From a virus, in the UHGV virus genome UHGV-0351052: a stretch of 64,000 nt of DNA; one strand, 5' to 3'. Shown here one piece after another: positions 3,553 to 63,959 of this stretch (its first letter is position 1; each line of letters starts with the position of its first letter). Under the pieces are notes generated by a model, which was given only the letters and a program-made list of their open reading frames with translations, was not told the DNA's origin and ran no database searches. The translations under genes were made by a program, and so were the position numbers.

Positions 3553-4872
3553 TCATACATAAAACACATCATAACGACCACGCGTTACACCAACATAAAG
3601 AAGTTGTTGAGCCAATTCAGCATCTGCATAATGAATACAAGGCGTATAAATGAAAGCACGGTCTACAGACATGCCCTGAGCTTTATGGAATGTTGATGCA
3701 GGAAGTGCTTTCACTTTACTAAACTGTGATTTAGCATCCCAAAAATCACTCCACGGGGCTTTTCCGCCTTTATTCCAATTTTTATAAGTTTCTGCCGTTT
3801 TACCTAAAAATAGGTTAAACTTATACAATTCTTCATCAGATGAAATTATTTTAATCTTTTCACGATAATATTCATCATCGCCGTAAGTTTCTACTGTTAA
3901 ATCCCAATGACGAATTAAGTATTCTCCAGGAACACCACGGGCTTTAACAAAGGTTGATGTATACTCTGCTTCTATAATACGAACTAATTGTCCGTTATTA
4001 AAAATAATTTCTGACACAGGCTTTCCATCAATTTTATATGTTTTAATTAATGGTTCCTGCATTACAATAATTTCACCAACAATAAAATCTTTATCAGTTT
4101 CAAAAATCTTTTTACGAATAATGCTATTTAACTTGTCAACAGATTTATTCGTAAATGCCATTACGCGATTTTCAAACAAATCATCTAGTGATTTGACGAT
4201 TGAAAAATAATTTACCATAAAATCGCGTAAAGCAGTATCACCAGTAAATCCACGTACTCCATGCCCGTCAACAATTTTATCATAAATCCACTTACCGTTA
4301 CGAACGTCAGTAGCTACATCAATAATAGGAGCATTACTGCGTTTAACTTCAGTGAGTTCACACTGATAAAAATCTTTGTGTGTAAAGAATGGACTGATAT
4401 AAGCAGTATTTTCTCCTGGGTCAACAGGTCTAATTTGCTTATTATCCCCTATTCCAATTATAGTACACCACGGCGGGATAGTTGAAAGCAGAATTTTGAA
4501 TAGCTTTCTATCATACATTGACACTTCATCGCAGATTAATACCCTGCATTTAGCTAAATCTGGTACTTCCTTCTGTTCAAAAAGAACATTTTCTTCATAT
4601 GTTACTGGGTTAATTTTAAGAATACTATGAATAGTACTTGCTTCTTTCCCTGATAGTTTTGAAAGAATCTTTTTAGCTGCATGAGTAGGAGCTGCTAAAA
4701 TAATACCAGTTTCACCCGTAGATATTAAAGCTTCAATGATGAACTTGGTAAGAGTAGTCTTACCGGTACCAGCAGGTCCATTAATAGTTACATGATGTTT
4801 CTTTTCTTTGATAGCCCTCATAACGATGTTAAAGGCATTTTTCTGGCCTTCTGTCAAATCATCAAATGTCAT
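3553..4872 (-). CDS. dda: Dda SF1B DNA helicase
   Basis: 439 aa; Walker A GPAGTGKTT, Walker B LICDEVSM; near-identical to T4 Dda as recalled. Confidence 0.9.
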   Translation of the reverse strand: MTFDDLTEGQKNAFNIVMRAIKEKKHHVTINGPAGTGKTTLTKFIIEALISTGETGIILAAPTHAAKKILSKLSGKEASTIHSILKINPVTYEENVLFEQKEVPDLAKCRVLICDEVSMYDRKLFKILLSTIPPWCTIIGIGDNKQIRPVDPGENTAYISPFFTHKDFYQCELTEVKRSNAPIIDVATDVRNGKWIYDKIVDGHGVRGFTGDTALRDFMVNYFSIVKSLDDLFENRVMAFTNKSVDKLNSIIRKKIFETDKDFIVGEIIVMQEPLIKTYKIDGKPVSEIIFNNGQLVRIIEAEYTSTFVKARGVPGEYLIRHWDLTVETYGDDEYYREKIKIISSDEELYKFNLFLGKTAETYKNWNKGGKAPWSDFWDAKSQFSKVKALPASTFHKAQGMSVDRAFIYTPCIHYADAELAQQLLYVGVTRGRYDVFYV

Positions 4873-12823: not shown

Positions 12824-12988
12824 TTACTCTTCTTTTTCTTTAGATTCCTCTTTTTTCTTTTTAGGAATCTGTTCAGGACCTTTATTTACTACAGCACCTG
12901 ATGTTGTTCCAGTAGAGATATTTTCAGGATTACCACCTGAATCTCCAGCAACCATATCTTCTTTGATAAATTCTTTATATGTTTTCAT
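12824..12988 (-). CDS. 61.1-slot small protein, 54 aa, with internal-protein-like N-terminus
   Basis: hand translation MKTYKEFIKEDMVAGDSGGNPEN...; N-terminal 10 aa match the start of the ipIII-like ORF. Confidence 0.4.
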   Translation of the reverse strand: MKTYKEFIKEDMVAGDSGGNPENISTGTTSGAVVNKGPEQIPKKKKEESKEKEE

Positions 12989-12989
12989 A

Positions 12990-13616
12990 TTAACCTCTAT
13001 TCATAAAAGCATTAAAAATTTGGTCATCAATAGAAACATTTACTTTAGACTGTTTTTCAGATGGCAATTCATATCCACATATTACAATTTTATGATCAAT
13101 ATCAAAATACACAGAAGCAATATGATTAATGATGTTTTCAGTAAAGTCTAAATCAACATCAATATCTTTTTGACCACAGCCCAAAGGATAAATAATGCGA
13201 GTAATTCGATTATCTTTAACAAATATTCCACCGACATACTCTGTGCTGCGTTTAAAGTCTACACGCCGACGAAATGAAAAATATTCAGGCTCTTTATGAG
13301 CTCGGCTCATAGGGCACAACGAATAACTAGAATAAGAGATGTCAAATCCTACGCCTTCAATATGAACTAAATTGTCATGATTAAACCAATTATAATCATA
13401 TGCCAAGTCCATTAGATTGTCATATGTAAAAGGCACCGGATTAACATCATTGGTCACAAGCATATAATTAGCAACTGCTATAATTTCATTATTTTTAACG
13501 AATACAAACCGTGATTGATGCGAATGACCTGGACCTGCGTTTTCACGATTAATGATATAACACTGGGCACCTTTATATTTGTACGTGTCTTTACACTTGT
13601 GCATTTGATAAAGCAT
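12990..13616 (-). CDS. 61.2-slot protein, 208 aa (T4 61.2/AdfA-like by position)
   Basis: size and synteny; no motif verified. Confidence 0.45.
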   Translation of the reverse strand: MLYQMHKCKDTYKYKGAQCYIINRENAGPGHSHQSRFVFVKNNEIIAVANYMLVTNDVNPVPFTYDNLMDLAYDYNWFNHDNLVHIEGVGFDISYSSYSLCPMSRAHKEPEYFSFRRRVDFKRSTEYVGGIFVKDNRITRIIYPLGCGQKDIDVDLDFTENIINHIASVYFDIDHKIVICGYELPSEKQSKVNVSIDDQIFNAFMNRG

Positions 13617-54639: not shown

Positions 54640-54960
54640 TTATTCTTTAAATCTAATCAATTTATTCATAGACTTTGAAACTTCTGCACGAACCTCATGT
54701 AGATTTTTGAGCTGTTCAAGACGCTGCTCATAGTAAGCAATTTCATCTTCTTCGAGACAGTCCTGTGAATCTTCTTTAAGATAACGTGCATAGTCCTGGA
54801 AAGCATTACGAACTACTTCCTGGAAGTCATCAAGACTTTGAATTTTCTTAGGAGCAACAGATACACGACGAGGGGCAGTATAATACTCATAACCAAACCC
54901 TGCGCTTAATTGAGCCATTAGTATTTTTCCTCTGGTTGGAACACTGCGCGACAAGCCCAC
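54640..54960 (-). CDS. hypothetical protein, 106 aa
   Basis: ORF-track ORF. Confidence 0.4.
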
Positions 54961-55220
54961 ATACTGGCTTCTTTGAGTTTCGTTTTAGCAATAGCTAACT
55001 GATCGAGGCTTTCAGCATAATTCTTCGCGAGTTCAAAGTCTTCGCAATCATCCCACGCTTCCCAGAATTCATCGTATAAAGCATCAAAGATAAGTCCTAA
55101 ACGAACTTCAGCGTCTTTGATAGCATTCACTTTACCGATTTTCTCTTCAGTATGTGGTTTATAACCCTTAATATCTTCAATCATATTTGACTTCCTCACC
55201 AGTACATAAATCGTATTCAA
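54918..55220 (-). CDS. hypothetical helical protein, 88-100 aa (vs.4 slot)
   Basis: ORF-track ORF; position-only relation to T4 vs.4. Confidence 0.4.
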
Positions 55221-55398
55221 CTAAACGAATAGGTTCATGAATGCCATATCCCTGAACAGAAATTTCTGTCGTGGGATAAATTCCATCAATATCGCCCATA
55301 TTCCACGCTTCATTAAATTGCTGTTCGCCTGAATTACTAAACCATTCGGCGAAAGCATTTAGCACATCTTCAGAACCTTCAATAATTATCTTTGCCAT
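55177..55398 (-). CDS. hypothetical acidic protein, 73 aa
   Basis: ORF-track ORF. Confidence 0.35.
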   Translation of the reverse strand: MAKIIIEGSEDVLNAFAEWFSNSGEQQFNEAWNMGDIDGIYPTTEISVQGYGIHEPIRLVEYDLCTGEEVKYD

Positions 55399-55760
55399 TA
55401 CAAACTCTCGGTAAAGGTACGAGCGATAACGTCGCGCTGCTGTTCCGGAGTCAGAGAGTTAAAGCGAACTGCATAACCGGATACACGGATGGTCAGCTGC
55501 GGATATTTTTCCGGATGCTTAACTGCATCTTCCAGAGTTTCACGACGCAGAACGTTAACGTTCAGGTGTTGACCACCTTCAATTTTAACTGTAGGCTGTT
55601 GCTCAATTTCAATTTCACGGGCATGCAAACCGTAGAAAATTTCTGGGTCTACAAAAGAGTCCTCTTTAAAGGTTTTAGAGACAATAATTCGTGCTTGAAT
55701 ACCATCTTCAAAATAAATAGTACCTTTATGTGTGCCTTCAAGAATTTGATATGCTTTCAT
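55398..55760 (-). CDS. autonomous glycyl radical cofactor (GrcA/YfiD-like)
   Basis: C-terminal 60 aa match E. coli GrcA as recalled, including glycyl-radical motif RVSGYAV. Confidence 0.8.
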
Positions 55761-55767
55761 ATAAACC

Positions 55768-56148
55768 TCAATTAGAAAATAAATTTATCCAAGATTGTTC
55801 TTTAATTAAAAATGGCTCAGAATCATATGCCATTAAACTCTGTGTGATTAGTCCTTTAAAAGGCCCATCAATAAATTCCATGGTAAAATATGGAATTTTA
55901 TTCATTAGCCGTGCATTAGGAGCAGTGCACAAAACTCTGCATCCTTTGAATACACCTTTTTGTAATTTGTATTGCTTGGGATAAAATTCGCTCAAAATGT
56001 TATTTTTTGCCAAAATTTCAAAATGATTCACCAATTTATTTTTAATAGTTTTTGGCGAAAAATAAAGATATTCGAAAAGCTGAGTGTCTGTCATCATTGC
56101 ATTCCGATTACGAAAAACTGTGGACGAGTAATACCACCAATGCAACAT
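55768..56148 (-). CDS. hypothetical protein, 110-126 aa
   Basis: ORF-track ORF; start region overlaps end of upstream ATPase ORF. Confidence 0.4.
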
Positions 56149-56681
56149 TTAATATTACAGCAGCAGTGTACAGTGTCAATATGGACACTATAAATCTTAT
56201 CCATATCAGGAGATTTGACAGGCTCATCAATTATATACAAAATTCGCGAAAGCGATAAACCTCTGAACTTGCTTCCTTTATTACCAATAAAACTGCGCAC
56301 AGAATCAGTAAATAAACGAAAACGTATATCATCATTAGAATAACGCGAAAATTCCTTTTTAATATTATCTGCGGAAATTTTAGCGTAAGCTGAAGTATTA
56401 GAAAGAACAATAACTGTTCCACCGTCATACAACCAATTAGCGGCAAAATTAGTTACTGCAGTTGATTTACCGGATTGACGTCCACCATCTATACGAAGTG
56501 TGCAATACTGTTTAAGTAAGTCTTCAAATGGTGGGATATAATCGTTTTTACAAATTTCTTCTACTCTAGCATCAGAATGGTGTGTAAAAGCATTCATCAG
56601 GGATAGATAAGGACCAGTTAAAAATGTTCTCATTTTGTTCTCTCTAGGTTTGGGCCATTCCATGGCGCATGAATTGTCCAT
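56094..56681 (-). CDS. small P-loop NTPase, 179-195 aa
   Basis: Walker A GGRQSGKST, Walker B ILYIIDEP. Confidence 0.5.
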   Translation of the reverse strand: MDNSCAMEWPKPRENKMRTFLTGPYLSLMNAFTHHSDARVEEICKNDYIPPFEDLLKQYCTLRIDGGRQSGKSTAVTNFAANWLYDGGTVIVLSNTSAYAKISADNIKKEFSRYSNDDIRFRLFTDSVRSFIGNKGSKFRGLSLSRILYIIDEPVKSPDMDKIYSVHIDTVHCCCNIKCCIGGITRPQFFVIGMQ

Positions 56682-56810
56682 TTCTGTATTTACCCATTAC
56701 CGCACTTGGGCTCGACCTTATTACAGGTTGGCGGGAATCCCTCACAGAATCATGAGGTCCAGGTTGTTCCCATGTTATTTGAATGTAAATAGGCCTATAC
56801 TTAGGCCTTA

Positions 56811-57386
56811 TTAATTACCACGGGCCGCATTAGCAACGGCGTAAGCATACTGAACATTAGCGTCCTTAAACGTACCTTTAGAGGTATCTATTTCTGCCTT
56901 AAAGCCGCCTTTAGCCATAACATCGGCAAATTCTTTACGGAAAGCCATTGCATCAAGACCTTTCCATGATGATTTATGCTTGGCAAATTCAAGACCAGCG
57001 TAGTTGACAGCCTTAGCTAATTTATTATCAATAACCCATTTACCAGCTTTAGGCACAAACACCGGGCCTTTCTGTTTGGAGAATAGTTTTAAATTCCAGC
57101 GACGAAGGTCACCGTCAGCTTTAACAAAAGCTGCGTCCAAGTTACTAGCAACAACATCTTGAATATGGCCAAATTTAAGCCCATCAACTTCAATATTTAG
57201 ATCGGTACGCCAGCGAAGTCCTTCCCAAGCGAAGCCTTTAAAGTCGGAAGCCTTTGTAGCTAAGTACCGTTCAATAGGAGCTGTTTTAGGGTCAAAGCCG
57301 TTTCCTCGGTAAGTCCACTCATCTTTATTAATGCCTTTGGCCTTTTCCACAGAAGCTTCGGCGATAAATTCTTTATACGTTTTCAT
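56811..57386 (-). CDS. ipIII: internal protein (ipIII-like), capsid-targeted
   Basis: N-terminus MKTYKEFIAE = T4 internal-protein capsid-targeting sequence; 191 aa, basic; just downstream of e. Confidence 0.6.
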   Translation of the reverse strand: MKTYKEFIAEASVEKAKGINKDEWTYRGNGFDPKTAPIERYLATKASDFKGFAWEGLRWRTDLNIEVDGLKFGHIQDVVASNLDAAFVKADGDLRRWNLKLFSKQKGPVFVPKAGKWVIDNKLAKAVNYAGLEFAKHKSSWKGLDAMAFRKEFADVMAKGGFKAEIDTSKGTFKDANVQYAYAVANAARGN

Positions 57387-57440
57387 ATGTTTCCTTTAAA
57401 TATTTTAATTAGTAATTTGTCTCTTCAAGTAACTGTGAAT

Positions 57441-57470
57441 ATACTATCACAATTCCAAGAGAAAGTAAAC
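57441..57470 (-). promoter_or_regulatory. T4-type early promoter upstream of ipIII-like gene
   Basis: minus-strand GTTTAC 57470-57465, TGA+TAGTAT 57449-57441. Confidence 0.4.
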
Positions 57471-57474
57471 AACT

Positions 57475-58005
<531 letters not shown>

Positions 58006-62673: not shown

Positions 62674-62750
<77 letters not shown>

Positions 62751-62753
62751 TAA

Positions 62754-63419
62754 TTAAAATTTCATTTTTCGACCTTTAAACCATCCTTCTGGAATTGGGT
62801 CAGTTTTCTTAATACGTTTAGAAACTTTTTCATCTAATGAATGAATCCACATCATACCAAATTGGGAATTCTTTTCGCCCTGTTGATGTTTATTTCTGGC
62901 GTGAGATTCTTTCATTTTATTAATAGTTTCAGGAGTATGGGTCTTACCCAAGAAAGATTTAGTATTTAAAAATTTCTCTCTATACTTAGGATTATCCCAA
63001 AGCTGTTTAAACCTTTCTGAACCCATTTTACGATATTTTTCTTTAAGGTCTGGGTCGTTCTCAAATCTGGTTTTAAAAGCGGCAGCTCCTTTTAAAGAAG
63101 CTTCTTTCTTTTTATCCAAATATTCTTTAGTGTTTAAATGGTCCCAACCACCTTCACCACCTAATTTCAAATTATAAACATCAGAGCGCTTTAAAAACTC
63201 TTCAGTCACAATATTCTTTTCTGACTCAAACATAGAGGTTTTATCGTCAAAGAACTCTAATATTTCTTTAGAAAAATTTTCTATACCATACTTATCTTGG
63301 GCTCTTTTTAATAATTTACCAGAACCCATATATCCATCATCTAAATTTTCGGTAGAATGAGCGCCTATATAGATTTTATTATTAATTTTATTTGTTATTT
63401 TATAAATGTAATGGAACAT
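62754..63419 (-). CDS. segB: GIY-YIG homing endonuclease (SegB-like) within tRNA cluster
   Basis: 221 aa; GIY-YIG motif HYIYKITNKINNKIYIGA; location between tRNA genes as in T4 segB. Confidence 0.8.
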   Translation of the reverse strand: MFHYIYKITNKINNKIYIGAHSTENLDDGYMGSGKLLKRAQDKYGIENFSKEILEFFDDKTSMFESEKNIVTEEFLKRSDVYNLKLGGEGGWDHLNTKEYLDKKKEASLKGAAAFKTRFENDPDLKEKYRKMGSERFKQLWDNPKYREKFLNTKSFLGKTHTPETINKMKESHARNKHQQGEKNSQFGMMWIHSLDEKVSKRIKKTDPIPEGWFKGRKMKF

Positions 63420-63461
63420 AAATATCTCCTATTTCTAAGAGTATTTATGTTCTCAAAATAT

Positions 63462-63533
63462 GGCCCTGGGTGGAATTGAACCACCATCTGGCGATTATGA
63501 GTCGCTTGCTTGAACCTTCCAGCTACAGGGCCT
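63462..63533 (-). tRNA. tRNA-Ile (anticodon CAU, lysidine-type) or tRNA-Met
   Basis: acceptor GGCCCTG/CAGGGCC, anticodon loop CTCATAA, T-arm GGTGG-TTCAATT-CCACC; no encoded CCA. Confidence 0.6.
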
Positions 63534-63539
63534 TGATAT

Positions 63540-63612
63540 GCTGATTGACGGAATCGAACCGCCGACGTCCTCATTACAAGTGAGGTGCTCTACCTACTGA
63601 GCTAAATCAGCG
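63540..63612 (-). tRNA. tRNA-Thr (anticodon UGU)
   Basis: acceptor GCTGATT/AATCAGC, D-arm GCTC-AGTAGGTA-GAGC, anticodon loop CTTGTAA. Confidence 0.7.
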
Positions 63613-63619
63613 AAATTAC

Positions 63620-63706
63620 GGAGGCGATAGGATTTGAACCTATGAGTCGCCGGAGCGACTGCCGGTTTTCAAGACCGGTGCATTAAACCACTCTGCCACG
63701 CCTCCA
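63620..63706 (-). tRNA. tRNA-Ser (anticodon UGA), long variable arm
   Basis: acceptor GGAGGCG/CGCCTCC, anticodon loop CTTGAAA, 87 nt with extra arm. Confidence 0.7.
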
Positions 63707-63708
63707 GT

Positions 63709-63782
63709 CTCCGTGGCAGGATTTGAACCTACGACATTCTGCTCCCAAAGCAGACGCTCTACCAAACTGAGCTACACGGAGT
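63709..63782 (-). tRNA. tRNA-Pro (anticodon UGG)
   Basis: acceptor CTCCGTG/CACGGAG, anticodon loop TTTGGGA, T-loop TTCAAAT. Confidence 0.7.
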
Positions 63783-63793
63783 AAATTAAATTT

Positions 63794-63867
<74 letters not shown>

Positions 63868-63872
63868 AATTT

Positions 63873-63959
63873 GGTACGAGAAGTGGGACTCGAACCCACA
63901 AGGAAATCATTCCGCAGCATTTTAAGTGCTGTGCCTTTACCAATTTGACCATTCTCGCG
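63873..63959 (-). tRNA. tRNA-Leu (anticodon UAA), long variable arm, CCA encoded
   Basis: acceptor GCGAGAA/TTCTCGT, anticodon loop CTTAAAA, T-arm GTGGG-TTCGAGT-CCCAC. Confidence 0.7.

Follow-up and report, generated by a model that had tools for sequence, protein, structure and literature searches.

The minus strand of virus genome UHGV-0351052 carries, at positions 55768-56681 of the 64,000-nucleotide stretch analysed here (the window), two overlapping open reading frames (ORFs), the first of which encodes a P-loop NTPase. The pair lies between a GrcA-like and an ipIII-like gene, in a neighbourhood in which phage T4 also carries denV and ipII. This raises the question of whether the two ORFs have taken the place of denV and ipII as an accessory module, as a first-pass annotation had proposed, or belong to the regular gene content of a T4-like phage. 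Our comparison points to the latter. Most probably, at a rough probability of 85%, the pair represents the T4 early-region genes vs.8 and vs.7 in their canonical order vs.6-vs.7-vs.8, the neighbouring denV-ipII cassette has been lost, and the element upstream of vs.8 is non-coding and covarying.

By its sequence, the window comes from a T4-like phage (Tequatrovirus). A megablast search returned 920 matching records among 50,697 phage records, and T4 itself matched 98% of positions 55300-57500 at 95-96% identity in two pieces, which span 3,069 bp in T4 versus 2,201 bp here. The matching stretch of T4 is annotated as vs.5, vs.6 (GrcA), vs.7, vs.8, denV, ipII, ipIII and e. When T4 proteins were used as tblastn queries, Vs.7 was identical at 109 of 109 residues (56097-55771), Vs.8 at 90% over residues 26-219 and Vs.6 at 98%, while IpIII reached 93% (92.7%) and both e and NudE 96%. 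The two ORFs thus correspond to conserved T4 genes. The T4 order is vs.6-vs.7-vs.8-denV-ipII-ipIII, so that the pair does not sit in the denV/ipII position, which is represented here by the 30 bp at 56772-56801. Since all four genes (vs.8, vs.7, denV and ipII) occur together in T4, nothing has been replaced: the pair stands in its canonical place. In the window, transcription over 55398-57969 on the minus strand follows the order e, ipIII, NTPase ORF, overlapping ORF and GrcA-like gene, with the flanking genes being those that had been recognised from the start. ipIII is followed directly by e, and neither another ip gene nor denV lies between them. The features of the locus are as follows.

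55398-55760, minus strand: vs.6, GrcA-like glycyl-radical cofactor (Gly_radical, E = 2.5e-18; 98% identity to T4 Vs.6)
55768-56097, minus strand: vs.7 orthologue, 109 amino acids (phrog_2049, E = 6e-54; 109/109 to T4 Vs.7)
56094-56097, minus strand: ATGA stop/start overlap of vs.8 and vs.7, read in the sequence
56094-56633, minus strand: vs.8 orthologue, 179 amino acids (phrog_1488, E = 9.9e-80; 90% identity to T4 Vs.8)
56649-56770, minus strand: RNA-like element with its core at 56678-56736 (covariance model R1, 97.7 bits, E = 1.8e-21)
56772-56801, no strand: 30-bp joint in place of the 886-bp T4 denV-ipII segment (blastn break points)
56791-56808, minus strand: terminator-like hairpin AGGCCTA-AGTA-TAGGCCT directly after the ipIII stop codon (consensus scan alone)
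56811-57386, minus strand: ipIII orthologue (phrog_5341, E = 2.5e-116; 92.7% identity to T4 IpIII)
57475-57969, minus strand: e (96% identity to T4 e)

The limits of the two genes differ from those first given. An ORF containing GGRQSGKST and ILYIIDEP is indeed present on the minus strand and extends over 56094-56681 (195 amino acids) when read from its first ATG, and the second, overlapping ORF spans 55768-56148 with 126 amino acids at most. Thirteen homologues of the NTPase align from MRTFLTG, which corresponds to the ATG at 56633, and the PHROG profile covers residues 19-195 of the 195-residue ORF, with positions 2-177 of the 177 in phrog_1488 being matched. The 40-residue extension of the T4 protein, annotated with 219 amino acids, matches the window in another frame only and meets a TAG codon. 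On these grounds, we assign to Vs.8 the 179 amino acids encoded by 56094-56633. Of the proposed range of 179-195 residues, the lower value therefore stands, while the upper one is a product of first-ATG reading. vs.7 starts with the ATG at 56097 and encodes 109 amino acids, just outside the 110-126 residues suggested for the partner, and the true overlap is consequently the 4-nt ATGA at 56094-56097 and not about 55 nt. Ahead of this conserved start the sequence is non-coding, and the T4 reference annotation of vs.8 with 219 amino acids probably swallows a non-coding structured RNA.

We next consider the genes that are missing. The blastn break points place 55000-56771 against T4 L001 1201-2979 and 56802-58600 against L001 3866-5671, with 56771 being the base before the T4 denV stop codon and 56802 lying 9 nt past the ipIII stop codon. 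Hence, 886 bp of T4, comprising denV, ipII and spacers, are reduced to 30 bp here, leaving the order e-ipIII-vs.8. Nine DenV proteins used as tblastn queries found no DenV in the 64-kb window (best E 0.18-2.2), while the T4 positive control gave E = 1e-94; this agrees with the first-pass annotation, which had seen no denV-like sequence. Among 41 IMG/VR loci, in which e and vs.8 are fixed anchors, seven have no intact denV between them. Such a locus scan cannot prove that denV is absent, as near-identical loci have apparently been merged, and for this reason we searched the whole genome of one relative by tblastn. Phage 235Ecol030PP is the closest record over 25 kb, with the locus order vs.8-ipIII-hyp-gap-ip-e (hyp, hypothetical gene). 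In its complete genome (167,904 bp) the sole DenV similarity is a 42-residue C-terminal remnant at the canonical locus, within the unannotated gap. Loss of denV without relocation is thus documented in the nearest relative, and we infer that the phage studied here lacks endonuclease V altogether. The remnant of 235Ecol030PP lies at L005 3883-4008 (PP355091.1, ~64882-65007) and a second one at 1800-1925 of an IMG/VR contig (L007); both are decaying copies and not clean cassette losses.

Other relatives vary at the same place. PST has the order vs.8-ipIV-ipIII-e without denV, and UFV13 and HMD-9 share vs.8-ipIII-hyp-ip-(ip)-denV-ip-e. Among the best 40 of 886 matches, no record is collinear with the window across both junctions. 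Cassette shuffling in hyperplastic regions of T4-type phages has been described (PMC2839356, PMC4122927). We considered a single crossover in ipIII as the source of the e-ipIII-vs.8 order and dropped it, since the informative sites show a finer mosaic: they are UFV13-like over most of ipIII and T4/HMD-9-like at its 3' end and upstream of its start. The ipIII region thus reads as a mosaic, and we claim nothing further from it. Each ip gene begins with a copy of one leader of about 47 bp, made up of the ribosome-binding site and the MKTYQEFIAEA targeting sequence (window 57355-57401 and 12944-12990; T4 L001 3728-3864), and these repeats are short homologies that could mediate the gain or loss of cassettes. 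Taken as genes, vs.8 and vs.7 are already known, uncharacterised members of the T4 genome, and the difference in ip and denV content is a common cassette polymorphism.

Downstream of vs.6, at 55177-55398 on the minus strand, the window has an intact vs.5 ORF of 73 amino acids, as do UFV13 and PST. The annotated 58-residue Vs.5 of T4 matches this ORF in two different frames, and for this reason the T4 reference vs.5 looks frameshifted.

The third part of our reading concerns the sequence before vs.8. We aligned the 230 nt preceding the vs.8 ATG across phages in which the upstream gene is denV, ipIV or ipIII. A near-invariant block of about 125 nt starts where the upstream gene ends, and the remainder up to the ATG is rich in indels. 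Even in T4-like phages with no more than 35-45% identity in Vs.8, the block can be recognised. The element, of about 120-140 nt, comprises seven supported helices and a possible pseudoknot and overlaps the 5' part of the 195-residue ORF. In T4, it coincides with the 40 codons annotated as the N-terminal extension of Vs.8. Its core, ACCUGUAAYAAGGUC-hairpin-GGUAA, is near-invariant and lies inside covarying helices. P1 occurs as CCG/CGG, CCA/UGG, CACAC/GUGUG, CGC/GCG, CCUG/CAGG and CUCG/CGAG. P2 is a hairpin of variable length in which a whole base pair may be lost on both strands, P3 alternates between CCC/GGG and CUGG/CCAG, and P4 (ACCU/AGGU, loop GUAAUA) shows changes from A-U to G-C; P5, P6 and P7 vary in a compensatory manner too. 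G-U pairs are frequent, which is compatible with the vs.8 strand alone. Support is weak for the pseudoknot, in which GUAA of the P4 loop would pair with UUAC downstream of P3.

For helices that were derived by hand from the same sequences, 90.8% of the cells in a plain MAFFT alignment are paired versus 22-41% with slid partners, nine pairs change on both sides, and none of 500 shuffles reached the observed values. In a second alignment, made with and thus fitted to model R1, 91.4% are paired versus at most 40.6% in the control, compensatory changes occur in 15 of 25 pairs and the covariation score reaches 0.203 versus at most 0.076. Both controls are biased by this use of the sequences and of the model. 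Folding of the single sequence gave a stability that is not unusual (z = +0.84), and RNAalifold recovered only six pairs on the MAFFT alignment. In a broad core alignment of 52 sequences, whose support rests on P4, P5 and inspection of the sequences, P3 is paired at just 58% because its register slips by one position between lineages. Rfam 15 yielded no match in 15 stretches (E ≤ 1 in the window region and six T4-like loci; E ≤ 0.1 at the element in eight loci that are not T4-like), and ARAGORN detected no tRNA or tmRNA cloverleaf in the element. The compensatory base changes probably reflect a folded RNA, and the element would be transcribed as a structured RNA on the vs.8 strand.

Where the element occurs bears on what it might do. 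Model R1 finds it once in the window, once in the 235Ecol030PP genome and in T4 at L001 2857-2978 (NC_000866 64816-64937, complement), and 39 of the 41 T4-like vs.8 loci possess it, once per genome. Two T4-like contigs show a tandem duplicate upstream of vs.8 (L016 2717-2831 and 2852-2972; L027 2724-2839 and 2859-2978). Two pattern scans of IMG/VR, combined with a 59-position core model (R2) that separates true copies (at least 42.6 bits) from chance matches (at most 27.5 bits), detected the core on 25 further contigs that are not T4-like and none of which encodes Vs.8 or Vs.7; among those inspected in detail, four measure 75-360 kb. Within the stretch examined, 17 of the 25 have same-strand tRNA genes, 15 of them within 560 nt of the core, and in one (L187) the element begins 10 nt behind a tRNA and has an intrinsic terminator at its end. 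Another of these contigs (L153) contains a match to abiF RNA (RF03085, 45.4 bits, gathering score 37) at 3624-3655 on its minus strand, between a tRNA and the core. In T4-like phages the element lies directly before vs.8 and about 6 kb from the tRNA cluster, which occupies 62677-63958 in the window; no second copy was found in the window with R1 or with R2 run without filters. All 15 pattern matches in bacterial and archaeal genomes fall in the chance score range.

Since the element sits at tRNA clusters in other phages, we favour a stable small RNA over a leader specific to vs.8. With confidence evenly poised, we propose that it represents an undescribed family of structured phage RNA, whose place in tRNA clusters elsewhere suggests a stable, trans-acting small RNA processed together with tRNAs and serving, for example, in translation or against tRNA-directed host defences. 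The motif may be among the 8,495 unnamed candidates of the viral structured-RNA catalogue PMC10690425.

The alternative that survives best, although we regard it as rather unlikely, is that the element is a cis-acting leader for vs.8-vs.7, such as a translational operator or a riboswitch-like structure, and not a free small RNA. T4 uses RNA operators of the leader type for other genes, which lends this some plausibility, and in 35 of the 41 T4-like loci the element directly precedes vs.8 on the shared strand, leaves about 15-30 nt to the ATG and closes with the two hairpins P6 and P7. In four further loci (L020, L022, L024 and L035) an ip-like gene (MKTYKEFITEA...) is inserted between the element (~2431-2589) and vs.8 (~2995). 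These loci may be counted both for a leader and against it. The same four have a partial second copy of P6-P7 right before vs.8, so that the 3' hairpins look like a recombination joint. The core without vs.8 or vs.7 in 25 contigs, usually in or beside same-strand tRNA clusters and once between a tRNA and an intrinsic terminator, argues against a leader, as does a Shine-Dalgarno sequence that is not visibly sequestered. A riboswitch is likewise not suggested by the downstream genes: vs.8 follows in T4-like phages only, and elsewhere, usually in or beside tRNA clusters, the element has no downstream ORF in common. It also does not fit the promoter/stem-loop (PeSL) cassettes of T4-type phages, short motifs repeated many times per genome at cassette borders, as it is 120-140 nt long and single in the window and in 235Ecol030PP.

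Beyond their orthology, what might the two proteins do? The Vs.8 family is small, with 21 clusters at 90% identity. Our search recovered 41 cluster representatives among 1.84 billion proteins, the complete members having mostly 163-185 amino acids, and all 41 vs.8 loci found by the Vs.8 profile in IMG/VR lie on contigs with T4-type e, nudE and ip genes, 40 of these contigs being 100-178 kb long. A scan of 185,579 bacterial and archaeal genomes with two peptide patterns found no relative; in the data searched, the family thus occurs in phage sequences only.

Vs.8 displays the signature of an additional-strand catalytic-glutamate (ASCE) P-loop NTPase (GxxxxGK[ST]; hhhhD plus catalytic Glu), with Walker A at G51-R-Q-S-G-K56-S, Walker B at I-I-D136-E137 (IIDEP) and conserved R113 and R124-G125. 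Near-invariant positions are Y9, T45, G51, R52, Q53, G55, K56, A59, F63, R113, G125, P171 and G177; G51, G55 and K56 are invariant or nearly so in all 33 family members, and D136-E137 are invariant in the 13 closer ones. Two distant relatives, P0059 and P0061, have histidine instead of the Walker A lysine (GPRQTGHT, ARRSGHS) and no Walker B DE, which probably makes them inactive family members. Across the 33 members, weak Pfam matches recur to AAA_14 (27/33) and Terminase_6N (19/33, best E 6.8e-5). The Vs.8 profile weakly matched T4 gp17 in the PDB (E = 0.039), and hhalign aligned it to residues 158-262 of T4-type gp17 over 97 columns (probability 81%, E = 1.2e-5), pairing RQxGKT, the following strand, the RG motif and the Walker B DE.

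The AlphaFold2 model obtained from the 33-sequence alignment (predicted local distance difference test, pLDDT, 86; predicted template modelling score, pTM, 0.85) consists of a five-stranded alpha/beta domain and two N-terminal helices; with 13 close sequences the pLDDT was 50 and the model unusable. Foldseek matched the model to helicase domain 1 of DSH9, RadD, RecD, DEAD-box proteins and UvsW (probability 0.9-1.0), to the P74-26 terminase ATPase and the phi29 packaging ATPase (4znk, 7ks4, 5hd9) and, in a viral library, to many uncharacterised proteins of 120-185 amino acids from large phages. Based on this model, Vs.8 may be a minimal ATPase that stands alone with a single RecA-like domain and comes nearest to the large-terminase core and helicase domain 1. 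Like terminase ATPases, it would most likely form oligomers for ATP hydrolysis and use R124 as an arginine finger in trans, and its substrate would most likely be a nucleic acid or a protein.

Vs.7 has a conserved core of about 55 amino acids, [RK]YxFxxGPFKG...EFIxGPxKGLxTxSLIxYD, and a variable N-terminus. PF26834 is recorded for its homologues; the Pfam library that we searched, which does not include PF26834, and the PDB sequences gave no match. A KOW/SH3-like fold, considered for the GPFKG motifs, was rejected, as hhalign against the NusG KOW domain returned a probability of 2%. That NTPase and partner form a two-gene unit, as the first-pass annotation held, is borne out by their conservation. 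In 36 of 40 evaluable loci, the end of vs.8 overlaps the start of a further ORF by 1 or 4 nt, and an iterated hidden Markov model search detected a Vs.7 homologue downstream of vs.8 in 36 of the 40, 34 of them with an overlapping start, leaving four loci with vs.8 but without vs.7. The ATGA overlap suggests translational coupling of the two genes. Vs.7, co-translated in this way, could serve as a partner or specificity factor of Vs.8, and the pair might provide a dispensable early accessory function. Some homologues of vs.8, vs.7 and vs.3 are labelled 'endoribonuclease' (GenBank PV287714, MZ502380 and OM386662; P0004, P0006 and P0023 from nr). No profile search backs this label, which was probably carried over from the neighbouring regB.

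Several points weigh against the reading we prefer. A consensus scan recognised no promoter between the terminator-like hairpin after ipIII (56791-56808) and vs.8, so that vs.8 and its neighbours are probably transcribed by read-through from further upstream. Phage SA21RB has an annotated terminator of the same kind between ip4 and vs.8. The denV negative covers 64 kb and not the whole genome. Pfam matches of Vs.8 itself stay below threshold (AAA_14 19 bits, cut-off 27; Terminase_6N 14.2-14.4 bits, cut-off 22) and its Foldseek template modelling (TM) scores are just 0.45-0.53, for which reasons we treat the link to terminases and helicases as resemblance and not as membership. That Vs.8 oligomerises, that R124 acts as an arginine finger and that Vs.7 and Vs.8 form a complex are inferences, and our literature search found no biochemical or genetic datum on either protein.

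The proposal of the first-pass annotation, in which NTPase and partner form an accessory or counter-defence module in place of denV/ipII beside the injected-protein locus, now appears improbable, though not without attractions. The locus does adjoin ip genes, the Vs.8 family is known from phage sequences only, with no relative in the bacterial and archaeal scan, and vs.3, four genes downstream, codes for TadIV-1, which acts as a sponge on the signal of type IV Thoeris (PMC13243611, Nat Commun 2026). The window copy of vs.3 (99% identity) lies at 54640-54918 on the minus strand and is identical to T4 TadIV-1 at 91 of 92 residues; judged by this copy, the phage would probably resist type IV Thoeris. 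In the same study, the only relevant publication on vs.7/vs.8 that we found, T4 vs.3 to vs.8 were placed one by one under 'the promoter of vs.8', and immunity was impaired by vs.3 alone; Vs.7 and Vs.8 gave no inhibition of type IV Thoeris (PMC13243611). T4, moreover, holds vs.8 and vs.7 along with denV and ipII, and in 36 of 40 loci vs.8 and a following Vs.7 homologue form a constant anchor, irrespective of the genes upstream. PADLOC matches are confined to weak P-loop similarity at E = 0.002 or worse, and in PDB, NCBIfam and PADLOC neither Vs.8 nor Vs.7 had a meaningful sequence match.

It is very improbable that Vs.8 truly starts further upstream, with 195 residues here and 219 in T4, and that the upstream block is conserved as protein-coding sequence. 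The T4 annotation has such a start, and tblastn picks 'PVIRSSPSAV' upstream of vs.8 even in distant loci. The T4 N-terminal frame, however, meets its TAG here and the 195-residue ORF uses a different frame, so that the same conserved nucleotides are read in differing frames in T4, the window and a further locus (L012). Indels of 1 nt and of other non-triplet lengths occur, the stretch just before the ATG is indel-rich, and the changes in the helices are compensatory, including G-U intermediates that pair on the vs.8 strand only. The core also recurs in other phages, mostly beside tRNA genes, without a common ORF. Weakest of all, and already contradicted by the data, is the view that a single gene, divided by a frameshift as a pseudogene or through programmed frameshifting, underlies both ORFs: they do overlap and the frame shifts at their junction, but T4 and divergent loci likewise have them as two separate ORFs, Vs.8 has a conserved C-terminus (FFVIGMQ) with the ATG of vs.7 exactly at its stop codon, none of 41 clusters contains a fused homologue, and four loci have vs.8 without vs.7.

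With the pair read as vs.8 and vs.7, the gene pair and the polymorphism next to it are ordinary, and what merits follow-up is the RNA family, together with the 5' end of vs.8 that has probably been mis-annotated because of it. Should this RNA prove real, an RNA gene family common to T4 and to phages that are not T4-like has so far gone unnoticed even in T4. Vs.8 and Vs.7, a tightly linked pair found here in phages only and built around a terminase-like mini-ATPase, merit screens for anti-defence and host-takeover functions. Natural differences in UV sensitivity among T-even phages belong to classical genetics, and since the present phage probably has no endonuclease V, it should be more UV-sensitive than T4.

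When compared to large terminases (T4 gp17, P74-26 TerL, phi29 gp16), Vs.8 shares the xRQxGK[ST] Walker A motif, the next beta-strand, the RG before Walker B and hhhhDE. Unlike them, it has about 175 amino acids, ends after the ATPase core without nuclease domain or subdomain II, and is encoded among early accessory genes outside the packaging module; by analogy with 235Ecol030PP, the phage should have its own terminase elsewhere. With helicases of superfamilies 1 and 2, Vs.8 has in common the DE after Walker B and a RecA-like domain 1, its best structural match, whereas a helicase requires two such domains and Vs.8 has one, ending right after the fifth strand.

The closest known counterparts are T4 vs.8 (NP_049732) and vs.7 (NP_049731), with PHROG 1488 and 2049, which have the same order, strand and ATGA overlap as in the window. 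T4 differs in the annotated 40-residue N-terminal extension of Vs.8, which is not conserved as coding sequence, and in its upstream neighbour, which is denV there and ipIII here. In the variable ip/denV locus of T-even phages, whole cassettes vary between e and vs.8, and the version in the window, with ipIII only, is the smallest seen. Small stable RNAs are also known to be co-encoded with phage tRNA clusters, such as the species 1 and 2 RNAs of T4. The upstream element differs from these in being adjacent to vs.8 in T4-like phages, in belonging to no Rfam family and in not being a tRNA, and it resembles them outside the T4-like phages, where its core lies on the same strand as the tRNAs.

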